Shown: piece by piece, positions 832 to 24,860 of the stretch
Position numbering within the stretch: position 1 is the first letter of the stretch
Layout: the number at the start of each line of letters is the position of its first letter
Source of the DNA: Alphaproteobacteria bacterium
GTDB taxonomy: Bacteria; Pseudomonadota; Alphaproteobacteria; Bin95
NCBI GenBank assembly: GCA_963665325.3
Contig: CAXXWS020000002.1
Span: 64,001 to 128,000, forward strand
Direction: 5' to 3'
DNA: 64,000 nucleotides
The notes under the pieces: model-generated
Seen by the model: only the letters and a program-made list of their open reading frames with translations
The model's database searches: none
What the model was told of the DNA's origin: nothing
Made by a program: the position numbers and the translations under genes

Positions 832-1247
832 GTTGCGGGCAGCGGCCGCTCAGACTGAACACAAGGCGAAATTCTGCGTGACCGGGGCCGGGTTCTGGGT
901 CTCGGCGCCGATCCCGGCGGGGTGAACGCGTTCGGTTTGGCGTTCCTCGACAGCTCCGGTGGAGTGGAAGGCCTTACGGTCTCGTCTGTCGATGAATCCG
1001 GTCACGGGGTCGGCGCGAGGCTGTTCCAGTTGAAATCCTTGAACAGCGGCAGGGCTTCCGGATCGATATGGAAGCTCCGGTATTTGGGGCCCATGGTGCC
1101 GATGCTGGGTTCGATTGCCCCCGTCCTCCCGGAAGGCGTCGCCCGCGCCAGTATGGCCGAAACCGGTTGCTGTGGCGAACGGGGACATCCGACCTGCGCC
1201 CCAGGATTGCGATTTGTTCATAAAATAAGAAAATTTACAGAAACAAC

Positions 1248-1276
1248 TTGACTCCCGGAAGGTTCGGCCCTAGATG
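1248..1276 (+). promoter_or_regulatory. sigma70-type promoter heading element copy 1
   Basis: TTGACT-N17-TAGATG preceded by an AT-rich UP-like tract (1213-1247). Confidence 0.55.
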
Positions 1277-1401
1277 GGGCGGGAGGAAGGAAGCGGCATC
1301 CGGAGGCCGTTTCGTTTGGCGCCGGCGCGAAGAAAGACCCCCGAGAAACCGACGGGAGACGTGCGCCCCGCGTTTGTCTTGCCTTGCGCGCGGGGGCACA
1401 G

Positions 1402-1476
1402 GCGCAATCAGGCGCGCGAACCGCGCCGGCGCCAACGCGCCGGCCCGCGCGCACGCGATACGCGCGAAACAGGGTC
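1402..1476 (+). repeat. 75-bp dispersed conserved segment, copy 1
   Basis: 68/75 identical, ungapped, to the reverse complement of 20031-20105; first 35 and last 23 nt identical. Confidence 0.92.
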
Positions 1477-1509
1477 CCGCCGCAAGGGGAGACGGGCGGC
1501 GGGGAAATA

Positions 1510-1524
1510 GAACAAAACAGGATT
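1510..1524 (+). promoter_or_regulatory. Degenerate alphaproteobacterial LexA box
   Basis: GAAC-AAAACAG-GATT (2 mismatches to GAAC-N7-GAAC) just before an AGGAGG RBS; same relative position as the perfect box at 19954-19968. Confidence 0.4.
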
Positions 1525-1538
1525 TTCAGGAGGGGCCA

Positions 1539-1634
1539 ATGCCGAAGACAGGGACGAGAACGAACCGGACGGAATACCCCGAGCCCCTGCCCGAAAGGAC
1601 TGGACGACATGCGCCCTGCGTATGCGGATCATGA
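1539..1634 (+). CDS. 31-aa small ORF or remnant in element copy 1, ending in a SEC-C-like half motif
   Basis: AGGAGG RBS at 1528-1533; MPKTGTRTNRTEYPEPLPERTGRHAPCVCGS*; the stop lies inside a CATGACA repeat. Confidence 0.35.
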   Translation: MPKTGTRTNRTEYPEPLPERTGRHAPCVCGS

Positions 1635-1647
1635 CAAAACATGACAC
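1590..1647 (+). repeat. Imperfect direct repeat with 2 x CATGACA (10-bp period), left flank of the thermonuclease gene
   Basis: CCCGAAAGGA-N7-ACATGCGCCC...CATGACA-AAA-CATGACA; the same blocks recur with near-identical spacing at 2423-2490. Confidence 0.8.
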
Positions 1648-1705
1648 TCCCGGGGTGTTCCGCAGCGGAAACCGGCCGCGCCGGTTGCGGACCGGGGCGA
1701 GGCCG

Positions 1706-2251
1706 TCACCCCCGCCCCGCCTGCCTCCGCCGCCAATGGCGCGGGTCAAAGGCGACCTTGTGGCCCCACAGGCCGCGCCGTTCCCGCCGGGCTTCGCGTT
1801 CGACGTCCTTGTAACGGTCTCCATAGGCGGCGATGGCGTGGCCGTTGCGGACCAGCCAGGCGCCCACATCCTTGTCGTCGCAGGTGACGCAGCCCAACAC
1901 GCGGCCAAACCGGTCGATGCCCTCCACGGTCACTTCGACATGCCGACCGCCCACCGCCCGGATGAGCGCGCGCTTGACGCGCTTGCCATGCTTGAACCAG
2001 GTGCCGTCGCGGCGCTTGGCCCACTGGTCCAGTTCCGGTGCATCGAGGCCGGCGAAACGGACCCGATAGCCGGAGACCCGCAGACCGTCACCGTCCGTCA
2101 CCCATGCCTTGCCGGCAATGACGCTGCCGGCTTCCGGCGTCGGCAGGCGCCGGCCGCCTTGCGCGTGGCGCCGGCGGGGCGCCCACCGCCGAGGCCGCTT
2201 CCTGAGAAGCAGGAAGGCGGCTGCGAGGACAAGGACCGCAACGAATTCCAT
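1706..2251 (-). CDS. Thermonuclease (staphylococcal nuclease-like) with N-terminal membrane anchor
   Basis: Motifs VTDGDGL, RVRFAGLDAPE, DRFGRVLG, LVRNGHA, EREARRERRGLW; hydrophobic N-terminus. Confidence 0.92.
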   Translation of the reverse strand: MEFVAVLVLAAAFLLLRKRPRRWAPRRRHAQGGRRLPTPEAGSVIAGKAWVTDGDGLRVSGYRVRFAGLDAPELDQWAKRRDGTWFKHGKRVKRALIRAVGGRHVEVTVEGIDRFGRVLGCVTCDDKDVGAWLVRNGHAIAAYGDRYKDVEREARRERRGLWGHKVAFDPRHWRRRQAGRG

Positions 2252-2422
2252 GACCCGGCCCGCTTAGCATGTTTACGGCATGCGGGCATCCGCTCCGCCG
2301 GTGCGTTCGTCTCGCCCCGAGAAGCTTGGCGGGGGAGAATGCTTGGTAAGATGGGAATGGAGGAAAGGCGGCTTCCCGGAGCCGCCTTTTCGAATTCGGA
2401 AGGCGGGGGCGAGAGGGATATT

Positions 2423-2508
2423 CCCGAAAGGAACAGGAAACATGCGCCCGGCGCAGGGAGCCTCATGACATCGCATGACATTTCATGACACATCGCTGGA
2501 GTGGGCCC
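2423..2508 (+). repeat. Direct repeat with 3 x CATGACA (10-bp period) plus CATCGCTGGAGTGGGCCC tail
   Basis: CATGACA at 2464, 2474 and 2484; the tail matches the reverse complement of 18926-18943 at 17/18 nt. Confidence 0.9.
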
Positions 2509-14981: not shown

Positions 14982-15050
14982 CGGGTTCTGGACCGGCGCT
15001 CCGGAACGGGCTACCGAGGGGGCGTGCTTTCGAGGAACGGGAGACAGAGG

Positions 15051-15776
15051 ATGCGTTTGCAGGGTCGGGTTGCGGCGGTGACGGGGGCTGGCGGCGGGAT
15101 CGGCGGGGCGGTTGCGGCCGCCTTCCGCGCCGAAGGAGCCATCGTGGTGGGGGCGGACCTCAAGGCGGACGGGCTCGGTCCGGACGGCCTGGTCATAGAC
15201 GTGTCGAATCCTGAGGATGCGAGGCGCCTTGTGTCCGAGACGGTCGCGCGCCACGGCCGCATCGACATTCTCGCCAATGTGGCGGGCACCAGCCTGCGGC
15301 ATGCGTTCCTCGACGTGACGCAGGAAGACTTCGACCGCATCCTCCGGGTCAACCTCCACGGCAGCTTCTACTGCGCGCAGGAGGCGGCCCGCGCCATGGC
15401 CGAAGCCGGCTACGGGCGCATCGTCAATATCGCGTCCATCTCCGGTGTGCGCGCGGGCGCCGAGCGCACGGCCTACGGCATATCCAAGGCGGGTGTCATC
15501 GCGCTGACGCAGCAGGCGGCGCATGAGCTGGCGCCCTTCGGCATCACGGTGAACGCCATCGCGCCGGGGCCGGTCGATACCGAGCTTACCCGCGTCCATC
15601 ACACGCCCGCCGCCCGCGCCAACTACAAGCGCATGATCCCTGCCGGCCGTTACGGCCTCTGCGAGGAGATGGCGGACGCGGCAGTGTTCCTCGCGGGCGA
15701 GGCGGCGGCTTACGTTAACGGCGTCGTGCTCCCCGTGGACGGCGGCTACCTCGCCGCCGGCGTTCGCGAGGACTGA
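15051..15776 (+). CDS. Short-chain dehydrogenase/reductase
   Basis: TGAGGGIG, NVAG, YGISK (YxxxK), NAIAPG, VDGG. Confidence 0.93.
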   Translation: MRLQGRVAAVTGAGGGIGGAVAAAFRAEGAIVVGADLKADGLGPDGLVIDVSNPEDARRLVSETVARHGRIDILANVAGTSLRHAFLDVTQEDFDRILRVNLHGSFYCAQEAARAMAEAGYGRIVNIASISGVRAGAERTAYGISKAGVIALTQQAAHELAPFGITVNAIAPGPVDTELTRVHHTPAARANYKRMIPAGRYGLCEEMADAAVFLAGEAAAYVNGVVLPVDGGYLAAGVRED

Positions 15777-15793
15777 CGCTCGAATCCGGGCCA

Positions 15794-15822
15794 TTGACAA
15801 GCCGCGCCCGGCAACCACTATT
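15794..15822 (+). promoter_or_regulatory. Putative sigma70 promoter of argD-argF-hslO
   Basis: TTGACA followed 16-17 nt later by CACTATT. Confidence 0.5.
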
Positions 15823-15887
15823 GCGCGCTTCCCCGCCGGCTCGCGGCGGGGATGTCGTTTGAAGAACTCTCTGAAGGAGACCCACTC

Positions 15888-17069
15888 GTGATCGCCCCCC
15901 TGATGCCGACCTATGGGGATCGGGACATCGCTTTCGAGAAAGGCGAGGGACCGTACCTCTTCGCGTCCGACGGGCGGCGGTTCCTGGACTTCGGCGGCGG
16001 GATTGCCGTGACCGCTCTCGGCCACGCCCATCCCGGCCTTGTTGCCGCGCTCCAGGATCAGGCCGGCCGGCTTTGGCATACCTCGAACCTGTACAATATC
16101 CCCAACCAGGAGCGAGCCGGGCGACGACTGGCCGACAACAGCTTCGCGGACACGGTCTTCTTCTGCAATTCCGGCCTCGAGGCCATCGAGTGCGGCATCA
16201 AGCTCGTGCGCAAGCACTATGCCGACAAGGGCGAGCCGGAACGCTTCCGCATTATTACCGTCGAAGGCTGCTTCCACGGCCGCTCGCTCGCCTCCATCGC
16301 GGCTTCCGGCCAGGAGAAGCTCTACAAGGGCTTCGGCCCGGTGACGGAGGGCTTCGACCAGGTGGCCTTCGGCAATCTCAACGAGCTGCGCGCCGCCGTG
16401 ACGGCTGAGACCTGCGCCGTGCTTGTCGAGCCGGTGCAGGGCGAGGGCGGCATCCGCCCGATGTCCACGGATTACCTGAAGGGCGTCCGCGCGCTTTGCG
16501 ACGAATTCGGTCTCTTGATGTTCCTCGACGAGGTGCAGTGCGGCATGGGCCGCACGGGCAAGCTGTTCGCCTATGAATGGTCCGGCATCCGCCCGGACGT
16601 GATGGCGCTCGCCAAGGGCCTCGGCGGCGGCTTCCCCGTCGGCGCCTGCCTCGCGACGGAAGAGGCAGCGTCGGGTATGGTCGCCGGCACGCACGGCTCC
16701 ACCTTCGGCGGCAACCCGCTGGCGACGGCGGTCGTCAACGCCGTGCTGGATGCGCTGCTGGCCGAGGGCTTCCTCGATGGCGTGCAGGCGCGTGCTGCGG
16801 ACCTGCACGGGCGTCTGGAGGCGCTTGCGACACGCTATCCCGACACGATTCTGGACGTGCGCGGCATGGGCATGATGGTCGGCATCCGGGTCGGCCCCGC
16901 CAATGGCGAGTTCGTCGGCGCGCTGCGCCGCCAGGGCCTGCTGGCGGTGCCGGCGGGCGAGAATGTCGTGCGCCTGCTGCCGCCGCTGGTCGTCGAGGAT
17001 GCGCATGTCGGCGAGGCGGTCGGCATGGTCGAAGGCGCTTGCCGGGAATTTGCCGCCGCCGCTGCGTGA
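15888..17069 (+). CDS. argD: Acetylornithine aminotransferase
   Basis: FFCNSG, FHGRS, DEVQCGMGRTG, AKGLGGGFP, HGSTFGGNPL; GTG start after AAGGAG; adjacent to argF. Confidence 0.95.
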   Translation: MIAPLMPTYGDRDIAFEKGEGPYLFASDGRRFLDFGGGIAVTALGHAHPGLVAALQDQAGRLWHTSNLYNIPNQERAGRRLADNSFADTVFFCNSGLEAIECGIKLVRKHYADKGEPERFRIITVEGCFHGRSLASIAASGQEKLYKGFGPVTEGFDQVAFGNLNELRAAVTAETCAVLVEPVQGEGGIRPMSTDYLKGVRALCDEFGLLMFLDEVQCGMGRTGKLFAYEWSGIRPDVMALAKGLGGGFPVGACLATEEAASGMVAGTHGSTFGGNPLATAVVNAVLDALLAEGFLDGVQARAADLHGRLEALATRYPDTILDVRGMGMMVGIRVGPANGEFVGALRRQGLLAVPAGENVVRLLPPLVVEDAHVGEAVGMVEGACREFAAAAA

Positions 17070-17075
17070 GAGCGT

Positions 17076-17978
17076 ATGAACGCGCCGCGCCACTTCCTCG
17101 ACCTTAAGGACTACGACGGGGCTGCGCTCCGTCGTATCCTCGACCGCGCCCTCGCCTTCAAGGCGGGGGACCCGGCGCGGCCGCTCGAGGGCAAGACGCT
17201 CGCCATGATCTTCGAGCAGCCCTCGACCCGCACCCGCGTGTCCTTTGAGGTCGCCATGCGCCAGCTCGGCGGCCATGTCATCGTGCTTTCGGGCCAGGAC
17301 ACGCAGGTCAAGCGCGGCGAAAGCTGGGCCGACACGGCGCGGGTGCTGTCGCGCTATGTCGATGCGATCATGATCCGCACCGACAATCACGACAAGCTGA
17401 CCGAGCTCGCCGCCAACTCGGAGGTGCCGGTCATCAACGGCCTGACGGACCGCTCGCATCCCTGCCAGCTCATGGCGGATGTGATGACCTTCGAGGAGCA
17501 GCGCGGCGCCATCGCGGGCAAGCGCGTCGCCTGGAGCGGCGACGGCAACAATGTCGCGACGAGCTGGATCCACGCCGCGGCGCGTTTCGACTTCGATTTC
17601 GCCGTCGGCTGCCCGCCGGAGCGCCGACCGCCGGCCGAAGCGCTCGCCTGGGCGGAGGCGAACGGTGCGCGGGTGAGCGTCCATGACGACCCCGTTGCCG
17701 CCGTGCGCAATGCGGACGCGGTCGTAACCGATGTCTGGGTCTCGATGAACGACGGCGGGGAACAAAGCCGCCACAATCTGCTCGCACCGTACCGCGTGGA
17801 CGAACGCCTGATGGCGCGGGCGCTGCCGGACGCGATTTTCCTGCATTGTCTGCCCGCGCACCGTGAGGAAGAAGTGTCGGGCGCGGTGATCGACGGGCCG
17901 CAATCGGTCGTCTGGGACGAGGCGGAAAACCGGCTGCACGCCCAGAAGGGCATTCTCGCCTGGTGCCTCGGGCGGTAG
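17076..17978 (+). CDS. argF: Ornithine carbamoyltransferase
   Basis: STRTR, HPCQ, HCLPAHR, AENRLH. Confidence 0.97.
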
Positions 17979-17987
17979 CGCCGGCGC

Positions 17988-18884
17988 ATGGACGGACAGG
18001 CGGCGTTTCGCGACGATTATGTGCGGCCCTTCCGGCTCGGCGGCACGCGGGTGCGCGGTCGCCTTGTGCGGCTCGGGCCGGAAGTCGCGCAGATTCTCGA
18101 CCGGCACGCCTATCCCGACGCGCAGGCAGAGGTGCTCGGCGAATCGCTGGCCATTGCGGCCGCGCTCTCGCAGTCGCTCAAGGCCGAGGGCATCTTCACG
18201 CTCCAGGTCGAGGGCAAAGGTCCGATCCGGCGGCTGGTGGCGGATATCGACGCATCGGGGCTCATGCGTGGCTTCGCGGGCTTCGACGGGGAGATGCCCT
18301 CGGACGGGTCCGGCGGTGCACCCTTCGGGTCCGGCTATCTGGCGTTTACTTTCGACCCCGCGGACGGCGGCGAGCGCTACCAGGGCGTGGTCGAACTGGC
18401 GGAGGGCGGCCTGACTGCCTCCGTGTTGCACTATTTCCGCCAGTCGGAACAGATCGACACCTGCCTTGCGGCTGCCTGCGGCCGGCGCAGCGGCGACTGG
18501 CGCGCGGCGGCGCTGATGCTCCAGCGGCTGCCGGATGAACATCCGGACCCGTCGGAGGAAACCGGCGAGCTCTGGACCAGGCTCGGGCATTACATGCAAA
18601 CCGTCGGGCCGGACGAGCTGCTGGATCCCGCGCTGCCGGGGGATGCGTTGCTCCTGCGCCTCTTCCACCGCGACGAGTTGCGCGTCGATCCCCAGCGCCG
18701 GCTCCGCGACGGCTGCCGCTGCGGCGGCCGGGCACGGATGGAGACCGTGCTCCGCGCGCTGTCCGCCGGCGAGACGGACGACCTGCGCCGTGAGGACGGC
18801 TCGCTGGAGATGGTCTGCCAGTTCTGCGGCCGCGCCGAAGCCTTCTCCGCCGACCAGGCCACCGCCCTCGTCCGCACCTCGTAG
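17988..18884 (+). CDS. hslO: Hsp33 redox-regulated chaperone
   Basis: VRGRLVRL, YQGVVEL, YFRQSEQ, Zn motif CRC...CQFC. Confidence 0.93.
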   Translation: MDGQAAFRDDYVRPFRLGGTRVRGRLVRLGPEVAQILDRHAYPDAQAEVLGESLAIAAALSQSLKAEGIFTLQVEGKGPIRRLVADIDASGLMRGFAGFDGEMPSDGSGGAPFGSGYLAFTFDPADGGERYQGVVELAEGGLTASVLHYFRQSEQIDTCLAAACGRRSGDWRAAALMLQRLPDEHPDPSEETGELWTRLGHYMQTVGPDELLDPALPGDALLLRLFHRDELRVDPQRRLRDGCRCGGRARMETVLRALSAGETDDLRREDGSLEMVCQFCGRAEAFSADQATALVRTS

Positions 18885-18925
18885 CGGCGCCGGGTTCCGA
18901 GAGACGCGATGCAGCGCGTCCGCCG

Positions 18926-18970
18926 GGGCCCACTCCAGCGAAGTGTCATGAGTTGTCATGTTCTGTCATG
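18926..18970 (-). repeat. 3 x CATGACA (10-bp period) plus CTTCGCTGGAGTGGGCCC tail, end of element copy 2
   Basis: Minus strand reads CATGACA-GAA-CATGACA-ACT-CATGACA-CTTCGCTGGAGTGGGCCC, matching 2464-2508; contains the TerS-like stop codon. Confidence 0.9.
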
Positions 18971-19936
18971 GTCCGGCGCGGAACCGGCGCCCTCGAGCCC
19001 GGTCTTCCTTCCCCTCTTCTTCTTTTTCTTTTTCGTCGCCGGTCCACTCCAGTCACCGTCTTCGCCGCCGCCCCGTTCTTCCCGTTCGAGGCGGTTCCGC
19101 GTTCGCTGCCCGACCTCCTCCGGGGCCCAGGGGGCGTAGATTTCGTCGTAGCCGTTGCGGCGCTGGTAGAGCCAGTCATGTTCGGCGCCGTCGGCCCTGT
19201 CACCGTCGACCCTGTCCTCGTCGCCGGACCCTTCGCCACCTGCCCACGGGCAATCCTCGTAGGTCTCCTCGGGCGGGTCGTCGGCGGGGGGCCGGTCTTC
19301 GGGCGAAGCCGGTTCGGGGGCCTCGAAGCAGACGGGCAGTCGCGTCCGCTCCTCGACGGCCCCGGCGAGCCTGCGGGCAACCTCCTCATGCGCGGCCCCG
19401 TCGAAGCCCTCCTGCGCCTCAAGCTCCTCCCGGCTGGCATGGTGCCGCGCGAGCGCGCATCGGGCGCGGTCGAGGCCGCTGCGCACGGCCTCGACGAGCG
19501 GCCCGGGTTCGGCTCCGGCCTCCTCAGCCTCGCCCGCTTCGATCTCGCCGAACTCGTCCTCGTGCGGCAGCGGCCAGAGCCCCGCACGGCGCGCGGTCGT
19601 CGGCCCCGTAAGCCCCGCGATCTCGGCCTGGAAGCGCAGCACCCGGAGCATCGTGTAGGCCGAGCCGCTGGCGACGGCCGCGTCCCACGCCTGCTCCAGC
19701 CGGGCAAGCAGGATGCGGGCCTCGTCCCGCTCGGTGCGCTTCCATGACAGGCGGATGCGCCGCAGCCGTTCGACAATGTAGGGTCGTTCCAATAAGGCGC
19801 AGCCGGTCTGGCGGGCGGAGCGCCCGGAGTAGCCGGCCTGCCTTGCAGCGTCTGCGGCATTGCCGGAGACGGCATAGTGGCGGCAGAAGGCTTCCTGGCG
19901 TGTGGACAGCGCGACGGCGGGTTGGATGATGGGCAT
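18956..19936 (-). CDS. Orphan terminase small subunit-like HTH protein with long acidic tail and poly-Lys stretch
   Basis: LSTRQEAFCRHYAVSGNAADAARQAGYSGRSARQTGCALLERPYI matches the Terminase_2 N-terminal pattern (L+xKQxxFxxxYxxxxNATxAAxxAGYS); AAAGGAG RBS. Confidence 0.8.
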   Translation of the reverse strand: MPIIQPAVALSTRQEAFCRHYAVSGNAADAARQAGYSGRSARQTGCALLERPYIVERLRRIRLSWKRTERDEARILLARLEQAWDAAVASGSAYTMLRVLRFQAEIAGLTGPTTARRAGLWPLPHEDEFGEIEAGEAEEAGAEPGPLVEAVRSGLDRARCALARHHASREELEAQEGFDGAAHEEVARRLAGAVEERTRLPVCFEAPEPASPEDRPPADDPPEETYEDCPWAGGEGSGDEDRVDGDRADGAEHDWLYQRRNGYDEIYAPWAPEEVGQRTRNRLEREERGGGEDGDWSGPATKKKKKKRGRKTGLEGAGSAPDHDRT

Positions 19937-19953
19937 GGGGCGGAGCTCCTTTC

Positions 19954-19968
19954 GTTCCGCTAACGTTC
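19954..19968 (-). promoter_or_regulatory. Alphaproteobacterial LexA (SOS) box
   Basis: Perfect GTTC-CGCTAAC-GTTC (GTTC-N7-GTTC) abutting the RBS of the TerS-like gene. Confidence 0.7.
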
Positions 19969-20030
19969 TTTCGAGTCGAACCTGATTTCAGGGCCGACAC
20001 ACAGCCATCACCCCGACCCGTCTCCGGAGC

Positions 20031-20105
20031 GACCCTGTTTCGCGCGTATCGCGGGCGGGCGCGGGCGCGTGTTGGCGCCGGCGCGGTTCGCGCGCCTGAT
20101 TGCGC
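20031..20105 (-). repeat. 75-bp dispersed conserved segment, copy 2
   Basis: Reverse complement is 68/75 identical to 1402-1476. Confidence 0.92.
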
Positions 20106-20209
20106 GCGCGAGCCGGAGGACGCACTTCGCCTGTTTGTTGAATCGGGGTTGTTCTGCGCCGGGCCGGCGCGAAGGGAAGCGGACCATGGATACCGCTTCC
20201 CTCGGAGCC

Positions 20210-20236
20210 ATTGTAGCATAATTTCCTGAGGGTCAA
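20210..20236 (-). promoter_or_regulatory. Putative promoter heading element copy 2
   Basis: TTGACC-N15-TACAAT with extended -10 (TGCTACAAT). The spacer is short. AT-rich upstream tract resembles copy 1 (TTGTTC...GAAACA..CTTGAC). Confidence 0.45.
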
Positions 20237-20282
20237 GCCTGTTTCGGAATTAATTCAAAACAAGAGAACAAGAAGTCATGCC

Positions 20283-20560
20283 GGCGGCTTCACCGCCGGG
20301 CGCGTCATCGGCAAGTGGATCGGCTTCTACAACACCATCAGGCCGCACTCGGCGCTGGGCGGACGGACGCCGGCCGAGGCCTACTGGGACGGCCCGCCTG
20401 TGGATATGATGGACGAGCCGCTTCGCGCCTTGACCACATCCCCACAGGCGCAGCAGCAGCAACAGGAAGATCGACTCAAGGGGATTCTGGCGGCCTGAAC
20501 TTCAACCGGGATACATCTTAACTCAGCCGTCAGGCTGTCCGACGAACCGAGGCCACCTCA
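20283..20560 (+). mobile_element. IS3-family remnant: transposase C-terminus and right end
   Basis: Manual translation GRVIGKWIGFYNTIRPHSALGGRTPAEAY (W..FYN..RPHS.LG..TP integrase-core tail), stop 20496-20498, IR-like end ...GAGGCCACCTCA. Confidence 0.82.
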
Positions 20561-20587
20561 GACGTTCTGAGCGGGGAGAGGGCGCGC

Positions 20588-21058
20588 ATGCTCAAGGACC
20601 ACACCTATACCGCGACCGTCACCTGGACCGGCAACCGGGGCGATGGCACGCGCCGATACCGGGGCTACGGCCGGGAGCATGACATCGCCTGCCCGGGCAA
20701 GCCGGTCCTCCGCGGCTCGGCCGACCCGGCCTACCGGGGCGATGCGGACCGGCACAATCCGGAGGACATGCTGGTCGCCGCACTCTCGGCCTGCCACATG
20801 CTCTGGTACCTGCATCTCTGCGCGAGCGCCGGGGTCGTCGTCACGGCCTATGAGGACCACGCAGAAGGCACGATGCAAACCCACGCCGACGGCGCCGGCG
20901 AGTTCGCCAGGGTCACGCTCCGGCCGCGCGTGACGATAACCGGGGAGAGCGATCCGGCAACAGCGGAACGGCTGCACGAACAGGCCAACGCGATGTGCTT
21001 CATCGCCCGCTCGGTGACCTTCCCGGTCGGCCATGCGCCGGAGATCGTGCGGGCCTGA
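20588..21058 (+). CDS. OsmC/Ohr family protein
   Basis: NPEDMLVAALSACHMLWYL and second Cys in CFIARSV. Confidence 0.92.
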   Translation: MLKDHTYTATVTWTGNRGDGTRRYRGYGREHDIACPGKPVLRGSADPAYRGDADRHNPEDMLVAALSACHMLWYLHLCASAGVVVTAYEDHAEGTMQTHADGAGEFARVTLRPRVTITGESDPATAERLHEQANAMCFIARSVTFPVGHAPEIVRA

Positions 21059-21068
21059 CGCCGCGCCA

Positions 21069-21186
21069 TTCGATACGCCGCGGATTTCATCCGCAGCTAC
21101 TCAGGGTGAGGAGATGGTGCCGGGAAGGGAAACCCTTACAAACCTCCCTCATTCCGAGTAGCCCCGGACTTGTTCCCGGCATGACG
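21069..21186. repeat. REP-like palindromic intergenic repeat between convergent genes
   Basis: GCTACTCAGGGTGAGG...CCTCATTCCGAGTAGC inverted pair followed by CCCGGACTTGTTCCCGGCATGAC, resembling common alphaproteobacterial palindromic units. Confidence 0.55.
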
Positions 21187-21255
21187 ACGAGAGGACGCGG
21201 CACGAAAGAGGCGCACACTTCCCGGTCAGGTCGGGAGGGCCCGGTTGCTTTCGGA

Positions 21256-22491
21256 CTACGCCGCCTTTCGCGCCCCTGCCTTGCTCGGAAGATTGAAGAC
21301 GCGGGCGGCGTTTCGGCCGAGAATGTTCCGCTTCTGATCTTCCGTGAGGAACGGGATGTCGTAGATGACGCGCGGCGCGTCGAAGTCGAAATGCGGCCAG
21401 TCCGAGGCGTAGAGGAGCTGCGTCTCGGCGTTTATCATCTCGAAGGTCGCTTTCAGGCCGACCTCGCTGCTCTTCTCCAGCGGCTGGCAGGTGTAGAAGC
21501 AGCTTTCCCGCATGTAGTCGGACGGCATCTTGGTCAGCAGCGGCGCTTCGCTCTGGCGCATCAGATACTGGTCGTCGAGGCGCTGCATCAGGAACGGGAC
21601 CCAGGAAAGCCCGCTCTCCACCCAGAGGCTGTTCAGATTAGGGAAACGCTCGGGGATACCGTTCAGGATCCAGTTGGTCATATGCACTAGGTTGCACCAC
21701 ACGAACCCCAGCGCATGCATGCCGAGGAAGCTGTTGCAGGTGGCGAGCGATGGGTCCTGCCAGTGGTAGCCGGCATGGAATGCGATGGGCTTGCCCGTTT
21801 CCTCGATCATCCGGTAGAGGCGCATATATTCGTTGGAGTGAACCGGCTTGTAGCGCGTCGAGGTGACGGTGAAGCCAATGACATTGGGGTTGGCGCCGAA
21901 CTCCTCGACCGTGCGGCAGGCGGCGTCCGGCGAGTTGAAGGGCAGCACGGCGAGCGACAGGATGCCGTCCTCGGCCGATAGCACATTCTCCGCCAGCCAG
22001 CGGTTGTAGGCGTTCGACAGAACCGCCTCCATCTCCACCTGCGGGTGCATGCCGATGAACAGCATCGGCGTCGGGAAGAGCACCATGTAGTCGACCGAGA
22101 GCGCTTCCATCGCCCGGCGCGTCAGCGCCACGTCGAGATGCACGCCCGGCTCGTCCACCTTCTCGCGCCGCGAGGACTGGTGCGGGATGCGCCCGCCGAC
22201 ATCCTGGTAGCGCAGGCCGAGATCGCCGTTGAGGCCGTAGGGCGGCGCGCCGATGCGCTCCTTCTGGTACATCGTCGCCTGGTGGCGCAGCACCGGATCC
22301 TCGATGTAATCGATGATCTCGTGCCAGTGCACCGTCTCGACATGGTGGGCGTCGATATCGACGATGGTCCAGTCGGCATAGCCGGCCTTGCGGGCATGGG
22401 CGCGGGCATGGGCCAGGTAATCGCGGGTGTCGGTCTCGACGCCCATTTCCTGAATCGGCATCGCGCTGGCGGTTCGGATCGCGGCATCCAT
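21256..22491 (-). CDS. Amidohydrolase_2-family metalloprotein, likely amidohydrolase-related dinuclear oxygenase subunit
   Basis: DIDAHH, AYNRWL, FHAG, WVESG, YASDWPHFDFD; operonic with a Rieske ferredoxin. Confidence 0.82.
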   Translation of the reverse strand: MDAAIRTASAMPIQEMGVETDTRDYLAHARAHARKAGYADWTIVDIDAHHVETVHWHEIIDYIEDPVLRHQATMYQKERIGAPPYGLNGDLGLRYQDVGGRIPHQSSRREKVDEPGVHLDVALTRRAMEALSVDYMVLFPTPMLFIGMHPQVEMEAVLSNAYNRWLAENVLSAEDGILSLAVLPFNSPDAACRTVEEFGANPNVIGFTVTSTRYKPVHSNEYMRLYRMIEETGKPIAFHAGYHWQDPSLATCNSFLGMHALGFVWCNLVHMTNWILNGIPERFPNLNSLWVESGLSWVPFLMQRLDDQYLMRQSEAPLLTKMPSDYMRESCFYTCQPLEKSSEVGLKATFEMINAETQLLYASDWPHFDFDAPRVIYDIPFLTEDQKRNILGRNAARVFNLPSKAGARKAA

Positions 22492-22495
22492 GGGC

Positions 22496-22873
22496 TCAGG
22501 CCTCCTCTTGCGTCGCCGCAGGCGCGGCCTCGCTCAAATGGTAATCCTCCGGGCGGCGGCGCGCCCAGAGGCCGAATTCCATCGGCCCGAGGCGCAGCGC
22601 GCGCAGCAATTCGGTGACGGCGGTGAGCGCCTCGGTCGGCGTCACCACCTCGTCATAGCGGCCGCGCAGCGGGCGGAAGCTGCGGTCCTCGCCGTCCGCC
22701 TTGGCGGCGTAGAGCTTGACGGCGGCGGTCATCAGGTCGGCAACCGCGCTGTCCGGTATCCGGTGGGCCTCGCCGCGCTCGACCGCTTCGGCGGCCAGCG
22801 ACCAGAGCCGGCGCGCGTCCTCGTCGAAATCCGCATAGGGATCGTTATGGCCCCTCAGGTCAGAGGGAGACAT
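22496..22873 (-). CDS. Small hypothetical protein of the Rieske/amidohydrolase operon
   Basis: MSPSDLRG...LMTAAVKLYAAK...VTPTEAL..., helical; overlaps the Rieske stop and ends 4 nt before the next gene. Confidence 0.7.
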   Translation of the reverse strand: MSPSDLRGHNDPYADFDEDARRLWSLAAEAVERGEAHRIPDSAVADLMTAAVKLYAAKADGEDRSFRPLRGRYDEVVTPTEALTAVTELLRALRLGPMEFGLWARRRPEDYHLSEAAPAATQEEA

Positions 22874-23228
22874 AGACCTCTCCGTTCTGCACCTGGACCG
22901 CGACAGGCTCCAGCGCCATGCCGTCATTGCCGGGGTGGCGGCCGGTGCGGATGTCGTATTCGAGCCCGTGCCACGGGCAGACGATATTGACCCGCTCCTC
23001 GTCATAGCGCCGTCCGAGCGAGCGGCGCCCGGCGTCGAGCGCCTCCAGCACCCGATTGTAGATGCGCCCCTGGCAGACCGGGCCGCCCTGGTGCGGGCAG
23101 GTATTGCGCCAGGCGTAGAAGCCGTCGTCGAGGCGGAAGACGCCGACCTCCTCGCCGCCGACCTCGACCACCTTCCTGGCGGGCAGCGGCGCAAACTCCT
23201 CGACCGACCCGACCCTCACCGTCTCCAT
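22860..23228 (-). CDS. Rieske [2Fe-2S] ferredoxin
   Basis: CPHQGGP...CPWHG motifs. Confidence 0.93.
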   Translation of the reverse strand: METVRVGSVEEFAPLPARKVVEVGGEEVGVFRLDDGFYAWRNTCPHQGGPVCQGRIYNRVLEALDAGRRSLGRRYDEERVNIVCPWHGLEYDIRTGRHPGNDGMALEPVAVQVQNGEVYVSL

Positions 23229-23303
23229 CGACCGTCCCCTCGCCAGCACCGGGCGGTAATCTGCCGGAGCCCGGACGCGGCGTCAATTTCGCCGCACTGT
23301 CGG

Positions 23304-24860
23304 TCAGCCGCCCGTCGCCTCCCCGTATGCATCGGCGAACGCCTGCAAGGCGGCGAAGAGTTCGCGGTCGTTGACGATGCGGGGCACCTTGTTCTGTCCG
23401 CCGAGCTTGCCGCGGCTCTTCATCCATGCGGCGAAGCCGCCGGGAGGCATGATGCGCACGCGGGCGGCGTCCAGGCCGTAGCCGTCCGCACGGTGGGCGT
23501 CATAGTCGTCGTTGAGGCGGCAGAGCGTCGCGTCCAGCGTTTCGGCAAAGCGGGCATGCCGCTCGCGGTCGATGCCGCCCTCGCCAAGTTCGGCTCCAAA
23601 CTCGACGATGTAGAGGTGTCCGCCGCGCGCGCCGGCCTCCTCCGGGAAGAGGCTTCCGGCGGCGAAGTCGCTGACCGTCGCGCCGATGTCCCTTGCGGCC
23701 TCCGCCACGGCGCGCTCGACCTCGGCGCCGATCACATGTTCGCCGAACGCGGAGAGCATGTAGCTCGTCCGCCCGGTGACGAGGACGCGCGGCGGGTCGC
23801 GTTCGACCAGGGTCACCGTGTCGCCGATGAGGTAGCGCCAGAGGCCGGCGCATGTCGTCACCGCGAGCGCATAGTTGACGCCCGGCTCCGCGTCGCCGAT
23901 CCAGCGGCAGTCCGGTTCGGCACTGTCGAGTTCGTCGAGCGGAATGAACTCGTAGAAGATTCCCGTATCGAGCAGCAGCCGGAGACCCTCGCCGTCCCCG
24001 CGGTCGGCAATGCCGAAGAATCCCTCGCTTGCCGGATAAACCTCGCGCGTTTCCGCGCCGCTGCCCTCGAGCAGGGCGGCGAAACGGTCGCGGTAGGGCG
24101 CCCAGGCGACGCCTCCGTGCGACAGCATTTCCAATGCGGGATAAATGTCGGCAATCCGGCTCGCACCGCCGGCGATCTCGGCCAGGCGCTCGAAAAAGAT
24201 CAGCAGCCAGCTCGGCGTGCCGGCAACGCCCGAAATCTCTTCGTCCAGGGAGCGCTCCGCAAAGCGGTCGATCTTCTCCTCCCAGTCGGTGATCGTCTCC
24301 AGGTCGTGCGGCGGGAAGTAGCGCAGCCTTGCCCAGCGGGGCATTTCCGCCGCCGCGATGCCGCTCAGGTCGCCGCTGGAGACCCCCGGCGCCTGCCGGA
24401 CCAGCCCGGTCGAACCGCCGAGCATGAAGACACGGCCCGCGAGCAGCCGGGTTTCCGGCCGGTTGGCGACATGGTGGACCATCAACTCGGTGCCCGCGCG
24501 CACATTGGACCGGCGCATTTCTCGGCTGACGGGGATGTATTTCGTCGCGCCGGTCGTCGTGCCGGACGACACGGCGAACCACGGAATGAGCCCCGGCCAG
24601 GTGCAATCGGTCAGGCGGGGGAAGGGGGCGCGCCAGTAGCTTTCCCAGAAGGCATCGTAGTCCCTGAGCGGGACGTGAGAGCGGAAGTCGTCGAGGGACC
24701 ATGCGTCGGAGAACTCGTGGTCGCGCCCGAATTGCGTGCGGCGCGCATGCCGGATCAGGGACGACAGAACGCGGCGCTGCGCCCGTTTCGGGTCCATATG
24801 CTCCAGATGCCGAAGCCGCCGGCGGGCATAGAGGCGGAGAAGCCAGGTCGCGTCGTACAT
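23304..24860 (-). CDS. GH3 family acyl-adenylate-forming acid-amido synthetase
   Basis: SSGTTTGATKYIP, YPASEGFF, FYEFIP, GLWRYLIGD, GKLGGQNKVPR. Confidence 0.9.
   Translation of the reverse strand: MYDATWLLRLYARRRLRHLEHMDPKRAQRRVLSSLIRHARRTQFGRDHEFSDAWSLDDFRSHVPLRDYDAFWESYWRAPFPRLTDCTWPGLIPWFAVSSGTTTGATKYIPVSREMRRSNVRAGTELMVHHVANRPETRLLAGRVFMLGGSTGLVRQAPGVSSGDLSGIAAAEMPRWARLRYFPPHDLETITDWEEKIDRFAERSLDEEISGVAGTPSWLLIFFERLAEIAGGASRIADIYPALEMLSHGGVAWAPYRDRFAALLEGSGAETREVYPASEGFFGIADRGDGEGLRLLLDTGIFYEFIPLDELDSAEPDCRWIGDAEPGVNYALAVTTCAGLWRYLIGDTVTLVERDPPRVLVTGRTSYMLSAFGEHVIGAEVERAVAEAARDIGATVSDFAAGSLFPEEAGARGGHLYIVEFGAELGEGGIDRERHARFAETLDATLCRLNDDYDAHRADGYGLDAARVRIMPPGGFAAWMKSRGKLGGQNKVPRIVNDRELFAALQAFADAYGEATGG

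Follow-up and report, generated by a model that had tools for sequence, protein, structure and literature searches.

The window analysed here, a 64,000-nt stretch of genome G000 (C3:64001-128000; contig CAXXWS020000002.1 of the alphaproteobacterial assembly GCA_963665325.3), carries on its minus strand a gene related to those of phage small terminase subunits (TerS), preceded by a LexA-type box and ending in an array of phased CATGACA heptamers (18926-20280). The locus belongs to a family of about 75 intergenic cassettes in this genome, each made up of a promoter, a leader of ~200 nt and a variable body, with two to four heptamers arrayed at the 3′ end. We regard it as settled that this is a dispersed cassette family whose protein-coding form specifies a TerS-derived, probably SOS-controlled DNA-binding protein; the anatomy and copy numbers of the cassettes, the homology of the DNA-binding domain, the conservation of the box and the co-occurrence of gene and arrays are all directly observed. 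An initial annotation, made from the window alone, had described an orphan terS-like gene in what might be a multi-copy, DNA-damage-induced module, and the sequence features that it listed are all present, on a scale far larger than 64 kb can show. The reading that we favour, tentatively and at somewhat short of an even chance, is that DNA damage induces a TerS derivative whose binding sites are the arrays, which may act as pac-like sites for the particles of a phage-like gene cluster elsewhere in the genome.

A dispersed family of intergenic cassettes

With the 1.39-kb terS unit as query, four further copies (89-90% DNA identity) were found on three replicons, giving five full copies with proteins 92-93% identical, and three decayed derivatives were also present (C1:2446947, C1:1745964 and C3:1325268). 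Homology of the five extends from ~25 nt 5′ of the -35 element to just past the third heptamer and the flanks of all five are mutually unrelated; the unit is 1.35 kb long, with a single open reading frame (ORF). The first 270 nt of the unit gave about 40 further partial matches genome-wide, while leaders numbered 49 by blastn and 75 by nhmmer profile search. Clusters of two or more perfect heptamers numbered 74, of which 67 have a leader on the same strand ending no more than 1,300 nt, and usually 50-500 nt, upstream. The spaced pair CATGACA-N3-CATGACA occurs 119 times in G000 (overlapping matches, both strands) and the reversed control pattern not once. A multi-copy module, as initially proposed, is thus borne out in so far as terS is present several times, and has to be amended in that terS is a minority cargo, with five full and three decayed copies among ~75 cassettes.

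The 5′ end of the terS cassette (Table 1) carries, on the minus strand, a -35 element (TTGACC, 20236-20231), a 15-nt spacer and an extended -10 element (TG-C-TACAAT, 20218-20210). A consensus promoter scan limited to 16-18-nt spacers misses this promoter because of its shorter spacer, so that its assignment depends on comparison of the copies: in alignments, most family members retain the block. Judged by its elements, the cassette promoter is of a strong sigma-70 type with an AT-rich upstream block. The leader that follows holds a nearly invariant core of 29 nt (GCAATCAGGCGCGCGAACCGCGCCGGCGC and GATACGCGCGAAACAGGG). Part of it had been recognised as a 75-bp segment repeated near the start of the window; the repeat is real, with the repeat finder extending it to 81 nt at 89% identity (20025-20105 versus 1402-1482). 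In Rfam searches only two tRNAs in the window reached the gathering score, and 18880-20300 gave no match at E ≤ 1. RNAalifold, applied to the 16 of 75 leaders that could be anchored among loci L001-L020, returned 43 pairs, only six of them with a double change (covariation term +0.41), giving no covariation support for a fold; the leader is accordingly taken as conserved in sequence and no structured RNA is claimed.

At the other end, the three heptamers occupy 18970-18964, 18960-18954 and 18950-18944, and array plus tail (18926-18970) match 2464-2508 over 45 nt at 87% identity (repeat finder), as first reported from the window. The TGA stop codon of the terS ORF falls within the middle heptamer. 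Owing to the 10-nt period, three CATGACA units present ATGA, an overlapping stop and start, in all three frames, so that every ORF entering an array terminates there. CATGAC-like words also lie immediately 5′ of three of the five terS copies; they occur in only three of the 49 family members and were discarded as a general 5′ feature.

Table 1 Features of the terS-like cassette, of other family members in the window and of packaging-related regions elsewhere in G000 (coordinates without a prefix refer to the window).
Feature	Coordinates	Strand	Details
terS-cassette 5′ end	20210..20280	-	conserved TTGTTC, AT-rich UP-like block TTGAATTAATTCC, promoter
Conserved leader, ~200 nt	20018..20203	-	starts with hairpin GGGAAGCGG...CCGCTTCCC
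LexA-type direct repeat	19954..19968	-	GAACGTTAGCGGAAC; 3 nt 5′ of the ribosome-binding site (RBS)
RBS	19951-19946	-	AAGGAG; start codon ATG at 19936
terS-like gene	18956..19936	-	ORF, 326 aa
Array of three CATGACA heptamers	18944..18970	-	exact 10-bp period
Tail	18926..18943	-	CTTCGCTGGAGTGGGCCC; directly after the heptamer array
3′ fragment of IS3-family transposase gene	20281..20497 (approximate)	+	rve C-terminus, from translation
Cassette A	1236..1665	+	promoter TTGACT 1248-1253, leader, ORF, two-unit array, short tail
Ancestral gene, staphylococcal-nuclease-like	1706..2251	-	between cassettes A and B, part of neither
Cassette B (mini-member)	2305..2508	+	degenerate promoter, first hairpin, three CATGACA units 2464-2490, tail CATCGCTGGAGTGGGCCC
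Prophage block (L137)	C1:474000-494000		TerS (phrog_426), Terminase_6N large terminase, portal (phrog_113)
Podovirus-like particle cluster, about 12 kb (loci L221, L201)	C4:512586-525672		outside the window; around the phrog_38 large terminase

Co-occurrence of gene and arrays across genomes

Database searches identified 333 relatives of the terS-like protein, 270-400 aa in length, in which the N-terminal 110 residues are nearly invariant. The few that are named are annotated as 'terminase small subunit' of uncultured Alphaproteobacteria and come from metagenome-assembled genomes, several of them from sponges. Because the cassettes are annotated only in this way, orphan terS calls need not mean prophages.

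An association between arrays and terS, suspected from the window, was found among genomes of the same genus. The gene is present in 12 of 16, with 6-17 matches in each, and has no match in G001, G003, G009 and G014; CATGACA-N3-CATGACA occurs 103-319 times in the 12 genomes with the gene, compared with 23 times in G009, once in G001 and not at all in G003 and G014, counts that come from related genomes and are not independent samples. In 24 genomes of other genera the pair occurs 0-1 times, and the reversed control pattern is absent from every genome. The position of the array is also maintained, in that, even in relatives as distant as about 45% identity, it overlaps the terS stop codon or lies closely behind it. 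Since the array lies within the end of the gene, the C-terminal DHDRT of the G000 protein is encoded by heptamer DNA, which dictates the C-terminus of the family as DHD(K/R/I)(T/S) in an alignment of homologues. Distant, longer relatives contain array-like stretches in frame (MTNPDISLH or TDHDISLH inside the protein), where a mutated second heptamer unit lets the frame continue into a further module. From this pattern the phased heptamers are probably, if by no means certainly, binding sites of the terS-like protein.

G033, from another family of the same class, has nine terS-like copies (33% identity over aa 9-112) with a different recognition helix, in a genome with no arrays. Its repeat unit (loci L040-L043) comprises the promoter CTTGTATTCCTAGGACTATAAG and the gene, without leader, array or LexA box.

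The terS-like protein

Searches of Pfam, PHROG, PDB profiles and Foldseek all placed the N-terminus among small terminases, in agreement with the helix-turn-helix (HTH) protein of TerS type first seen in the translation. Terminase_2 (PF03592) was matched with E 4.7e-12 and 47.2 bits (cut-off 26.1) and phrog_51, 'terminase small subunit', with E 8e-14. A PDB profile search with 32 homologues returned the small terminase of phage SF6 (2cmp, 4zc3 and 3zqp; E about 1e-8), with 42% identity over 50 residues of the HTH. The top Foldseek match was again SF6 small terminase (3zqq; 127 columns, probability 0.99), with helices 52-106 aligned to the full-length structure at a TM-score of only 0.37; the DNA-binding domain taken against 4zc3/2cmp gave a TM-score of 0.82 and a root-mean-square deviation of 0.8-1.4 Å.

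The AlphaFold (AF2) model is all-alpha, with a mean per-residue confidence (pLDDT) of 59 and aa 12-106 modelled confidently. After the TerS HTH (aa 11-50) come a long helix with a helical hairpin (52-106) and then a second hairpin (146-199); the remainder is mostly disordered and consists of an acidic region with a conserved HDWLYQRRNGY..IY.PW motif and then a lysine run. No catalytic fold, RNase-H-like or other, is present in the model, and Pfam gives Terminase_2 only. ESM Atlas, searched with aa 125-326, yielded no usable match, and no relatives of the acidic C-terminal half were detectable outside the terS-like family. In 50,697 phage records only aa 7-121 match, to TerS of pac-type phages at 32-48% identity; in IMG/VR (2.9 million viral contigs) matches cover mainly aa 10-80 and no locus extends beyond about aa 160. 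A plasmid collection gave no near DNA match and one weak protein match, to a Skermanella plasmid. Homology and predicted structure identify the protein as DNA-binding and derived from TerS, with no enzyme domain that can be recognised.

An HTH with a helical stalk and no enzyme fold would also suit a domesticated, damage-induced DNA-binding regulator or nucleoid factor, for which TerS ancestry is only historical and which coats the 74-plus arrays where strongly transcribed cassettes end, blocking or permitting read-through into downstream host genes, or compacting or marking the chromosome. The distribution of the arrays has features in keeping with such a role: none of the 74 cassettes lies inside a called gene (crude GC3 gene finder, 57% of the genome covered), arrays are spread fairly evenly across four of the five replicons, and neighbouring genes are co-oriented in 47/74 cases downstream and 50/74 upstream, as called by the same crude finder, against 37 expected at random. 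Cassette B is directed into metH. A single copy of the gene would suffice for a regulator, yet several are found per genome and copies decay, and the sites belong to repeat elements that vary between species. We consider this explanation quite unlikely.

A LexA-type box upstream of the terS-like gene

The direct repeat GAAC-N7-GAAC is the LexA site of Alphaproteobacteria. The perfect box reported at the terS RBS was found where described (Table 1), and its assignment as a LexA site agrees with the lexA promoter of G000 itself, which carries GAACTAATGTAGAAC, a motif of the same type; recA has a box with one mismatch. Perfect boxes occur 119 times genome-wide, against 101-217 expected, so that the box alone is not significant and its conservation across homologues is what counts. 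Among 56 starts of terS-like genes from G000 and relatives, which include a few mis-called starts and four G033 loci without a box, a perfect box is present at -27 to -38 in 30 and GAAY-N7-GAAY in 39. The half-sites are kept while more than ten different spacers are found (e.g. GCCAGCG, CGAAGCG, ATTCATT and ATATATC). In relatives at 45-58% identity (L114-L122) the box directly follows the promoter and has an AT-rich spacer, typical of strong boxes in G000. Perfect boxes are present in only seven of 67 cassettes, five of which are of the terS type (four full copies and one decayed); the remaining full copy has a degraded box (GAATGTAAACGGAAT). Conservation of this kind makes LexA control of the terS-like gene in vivo likely.

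One cassette without terS has a perfect LexA-type box with an AT-rich spacer at C1:1877612-1877626 (GTTCACTTAATGTTC), which replaces the AT-rich block and overlaps the -35 element. In this arrangement the family may possess an alternative route to SOS control.

Packaging genes elsewhere in the genome

The window itself had been noted to lack large terminase, portal, capsid and integrase genes, and no match from genome-wide searches with PF03237, PF03354, PF05065 and PF00589 falls within it (C3:64001-128000), the portal family not being among those searched genome-wide. Two large terminase (TerL) genes are present in G000, at C1:484 kb and C4:524 kb, neither beside a terS-like copy. The former is part of a prophage block (C1:474000-494000; Table 1) that also encodes a MuF-like minor head protein, a protease, a Neck1 protein and an endolysin, and is the only Terminase_6N match in G000. 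This TerL type is present in only 3/17 genus genomes, and a resident helper prophage carrying it was rejected as a general partner.

The second TerL, a phrog_38-type protein (E 3e-66), has one copy in each of 15/17 genus genomes, at 66-98% identity. It lies within a podovirus-like particle cluster, in which a divergent S24 CI-like repressor is followed by two small genes, an adaptor/portal gene (phrog_332), a gene for a 277-aa protein, the major head protein gene (phrog_3437), tail protein genes (phrog_394 and phrog_376), a 59-aa ORF (p59), TerL and a holin-like gene. A syntenic cluster was found in all 10 genus genomes inspected. Perfect LexA boxes stand at the first gene (C4:513280, GAACAAATCTCGAAC) and ahead of the portal gene (C4:514228) in G000, and perfect boxes are associated with the cluster in 8/10 genomes inspected, at corresponding places where the context was examined. 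The HK97 capsid family (PF05065) gave no match. The terS-like genes and this cluster share the same predicted SOS signal, and to judge from its gene content and boxes the cluster looks like a domesticated, SOS-linked particle system resembling gene transfer agents (GTAs). Complex prediction for TerL with the terS-like protein gave a score of 0.00, which is evidence neither way.

A proposed mechanism and its difficulties

In the mechanism that we favour, a LexA operator between leader and RBS would hold the terS-like gene off until DNA damage; upon cleavage of LexA the protein would be made, oligomerise via its helical stalk and bind the phased heptamers of the about 74 arrays. With a 10-bp phase the heptamers all face the same side of the helix, which is how DNA wound around a TerS ring would be expected to present them. 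The same SOS signal would switch on the LexA-boxed podovirus-like cluster, with its portal, capsid, tail proteins and large terminase, and the arrays would act as dispersed pac-like entry points at which packaging starts, carrying cassettes and neighbouring chromosome into particles. The last step, a link of the arrays to packaging as pac-like initiation sites for the co-regulated cluster, is less likely than not. An extended version, which we think unlikely, has a sponge-symbiont lineage turning generalised gene transfer into a site-directed process, in which multi-copy TerS paralogues, induced via LexA together with the domesticated podovirus-like cluster, would load TerL at the arrays after DNA damage. 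Selfish cassettes would then have seeded chromosome and chromids with hundreds of arrays, hitch-hiking as satellites on a GTA-like system with sequence-specific packaging initiation.

Several observations weigh against the favoured mechanism, in which binding, induction and packaging are steps inferred from sequence. Most cassettes carry the same promoter and have neither terS gene nor LexA box, and as such the cassette is not an SOS or terS device. In G000 the terS box lies ~250 nt downstream of the cassette promoter, neither overlapping nor adjoining it, and could therefore repress only as a roadblock. The GGAACGAAA-RBS motif common to non-terS cassettes overlaps the second of its half-sites. 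With regard to the protein, the Terminase_2 match covers aa 11-80 only, corresponding to profile positions 2-71 of 141, and no beta strands of three or more residues are present in the AF2 model, so that the beta-barrel of SF6-type TerS is not predicted. The full-length family was not found in the 2.9 million viral contigs or the 50,697 phage records. The particle cluster is present without terS-like genes in G003, G009 and G014, and the two are thus not obligately linked. The cluster has a small ORF of its own, p59, in what would be the position of the small terminase in T7-like phages. About 41 N-terminal codons of the G000 cluster TerL have been lost to an IS1634-like insertion (IS, insertion sequence). 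Cassettes at shared sites in several species have differing bodies and appear to be old insertions, recent mobility not being evident.

The truncated TerL, the three clearly decayed terS copies in G000 and the degraded box of the fifth full copy would also fit a non-functional remnant, an old prophage terS caught in a repeat family with which it drifts, its box a relic of the late operon of that prophage. Drift is hard to reconcile with ORFs that have stayed open over 270-400 aa, as seen in 12 genomes and among 333 database proteins at identities as low as 45%, with box half-sites that are kept while their spacers change, and with an array held at the stop codon over the same evolutionary range. 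We consider a remnant highly improbable, the least favoured of the explanations given here.

Insertion history and association with insertion sequences

The site downstream of hslO is occupied by cassettes with different bodies in G000, G002, G012 and G016 and has none in five other genomes. Such variation in presence and absence at orthologous sites would suit a mobile element of a new type, existing in autonomous and miniature versions, in which the terS-derived protein would be an end-binding factor and packaging would play no part. Having recognised the array, and possibly also the leader core, the protein would bring in a nuclease or recombinase of the host or of an IS to move or copy the cassettes; the short cassettes would be deletion derivatives keeping the ends only. 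About 75 copies with common ends and differing interiors, the internal-deletion derivatives of the terS copy and the absence of cassettes from called genes are consistent with this explanation, as are copies located at contig ends in draft genomes, the nine promoter-plus-gene units of G033, which have no other common flank, and the in-frame arrays within distant relatives, which look as if cassettes had been joined in tandem. However, the all-alpha model has no catalytic domain and Pfam finds nothing beyond the HTH. No terminal inverted repeats were found in alignments of five and of 49 copies, and a target-site duplication was not definable at three orthologous sites, where empty sites were seen and divergence or rearrangement of the flanks was too great. 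With ~10% difference among them, the five copies are not recent, and different cassettes at one site across species fit old insertions with exchange of interiors equally well. A mobile element of this kind is in our judgement rather unlikely, if less so than a regulator.

Short intergenic repeats accompanied by a few copies of one gene, with which they co-occur and of which deletion derivatives exist, are also found in repetitive extragenic palindromic systems (REP/REPIN-RAYT) and in miniature inverted-repeat transposable elements with their parent IS (MITE-IS). The cassettes differ from both in the lack of a nuclease or transposase fold in the associated protein and of a detected target duplication, and in being directional, with their own promoter, rather than palindromic or inverted.

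The 18-bp tail 3′ of the terS array, initially taken as part of the element, proved not to be general. Its core, TGGAGTGGGCC, is identical to the bases at the very outside of the inverted repeat in an IS3-family element of 1.25 kb (orfA/orfB), present at C1:1731658-1732908 and in about five other copies. Of 30 genome-wide copies of the TGGAGTGGGCC 11-mer, 13 lie behind an array, and in two cases an array is joined directly to a full copy of the IS, which suggests that the IS3-family element targets, or mimics, the array tail. On the opposite side, the 5′ end of the terS cassette adjoins an IS3-family fragment (Table 1) of which the remainder is missing; it has a 72% DNA match to C3:659045-659276, and no intact, near-identical IS copy was found with which to map its junction with the cassette.

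Comparison with known systems

Small terminases of the SF6/SPP1 type assemble into rings, and their binding sites at pac are sequences repeated in phase. The terS-like protein shares with the small terminase G1P of these Bacillus phages (Terminase_2) a homologous N-terminal HTH followed by a long helix, and departs from it in covering half of the Pfam profile, in lacking a predicted beta-barrel oligomerisation core and in carrying a 200-residue acidic, disordered extension. Its gene is multi-copy, LexA-boxed, without an adjacent TerL and outside any phage. Phage P1 has a single pac site with clusters of a hexamer repeat that are bound by PacA. The arrays resemble it by analogy, as a short motif in close, regular clusters that is a candidate site for a small terminase; here both motif and protein family are different, and there are about 74 arrays per genome.

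Staphylococcal pathogenicity islands and other phage-inducible chromosomal islands (SaPI/PICI) are satellites of about 15 kb that carry their own terS under LexA control. Like theirs, the terS-like gene lies outside a phage, is apparently SOS-controlled and could redirect the packaging motor of another element. It differs in being reduced to a 1.35-kb LexA-boxed unit with a single ORF, and in being present as 5-17 matches per genome together with about 70-300 gene-less sites. From this likeness it could be supposed that the cassettes form an anti-phage or satellite-like decoy, in which a TerS mimic induced by damage or infection captures the large terminase of an infecting phage and misdirects it to chromosomal arrays, aborting packaging, or spreads cassette-linked DNA in its capsids. 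The DNA-binding domain is indeed closest to TerS of real pac-type phages, the LexA control has its precedent in SaPIs, and with Terminase_6N prophages in so few genus genomes a resident helper would not be required. Set against this, no tyrosine recombinase (PF00589) match lies in the window (serine recombinases, att sites, replication genes and genes for capsid size or remodelling were not searched for), and the acidic C-terminal half is without detectable relatives outside the family. A decoy seems to us very improbable.

GTAs such as RcGTA, with its small terminase, are the subject of PMC6854486 and PMC7947584. The putative particle cluster is like them in being phage-like, single-copy and inherited vertically, in encoding a TerL and in its SOS-linked appearance. 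It is podovirus-like (phrog_3437, phrog_332, phrog_38), in contrast to the HK97/siphovirus-like organisation of GTAs. GTAs are not known to prefer particular sequences when packaging, nor is their TerS known to have a specific DNA-binding domain, whereas the candidate TerS described here keeps such a domain and candidate sites exist. In its presumed working the cassette comes closest to a satellite terS or pac module, and it falls outside either class by its context and by a TerS core that is matched only in part. The titles and abstract openings returned by a literature search mentioned no terS-cassette family, no CATGACA arrays and no multi-copy LexA-controlled terS.

If the arrays are packaging entry points, a TerS module that travels with 100-300 candidate binding arrays would confer chromosome-wide, damage-triggered, site-specific gene transfer on uncultured animal symbionts, and would provide a directly testable pair of DNA and protein. 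If they are not, the family would still be an unusual multi-copy, promoter-carrying repeat with an associated protein that has no enzyme fold, and would bear on the spread of repeats without a transposase. In either case the cassettes break draft assemblies, and their conserved promoter-like sequence could drive neighbouring genes.

Variable bodies and neighbouring features

The variable bodies comprise families of small ORFs, one to four tandem repeats of ~48 nt and decayed terS derivatives. One small-ORF family (MPKT.SR.NRTEYPEP..., 31-45 codons) is found in about 10 paralogous cassettes, behind leader and RBS. Each ORF of this family, such as those at 1539-1634, C1:1584493, C4:1065145 and C1:1399298, stops at a TGA inside the heptamer array. 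The ~48-nt repeat (GGCGGCGTCAACGCCGCCATCTGCAATGTTCGCCGCGTTCGGCGCGGC; 1-4 units) occurs in cassettes at, for example, C4:243295, C4:746567 and C3:374334. A similar repeat in the reverse-complement sense lies at C4:513660-513810, where it encodes the AARNAAN repeats with which the particle cluster's second gene begins.

The region 1402-2508 of the window had been taken as one dispersed element. It instead corresponds to two cassettes, A and B, flanking an ancestral gene (Table 1). In cassette A, the 31-codon ORF (1539-1634) has its TGA inside the first of two CATGACA units (1630-1646). Cassette B was not found at the same site in the relatives examined. The intervening gene, which from a reading of its translation may encode a nuclease, lies directly upstream of metH, without cassette B, in most of the loci examined in 15 relatives.

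Sequence of the terS locus is contained in sponge metagenomes. All 30 bins of 15000-24000 were covered in each of four runs, one of them labelled as a viral metagenome; this coverage was not counted as support, because packaged DNA is inseparable there from cellular carry-over. Summed contig depth was highest at the leader bin in all four runs, which only restates that the leader is repeated. Contigs from two of the four runs contain a deletion joint that connects 19458 to 19925.

Two leaders, at C1:776897-780630 and C4:10808-14542, are cut at ...CGCGATAC by identical inserted DNA, the leader core thus serving as an insertion target. The inserted DNA carries three tandem tyrosine recombinase genes and resembles a recombinase-in-trio element. 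Tyrosine recombinase matches in G000 number 63 in total, many of them in pairs about 1.1 kb apart.

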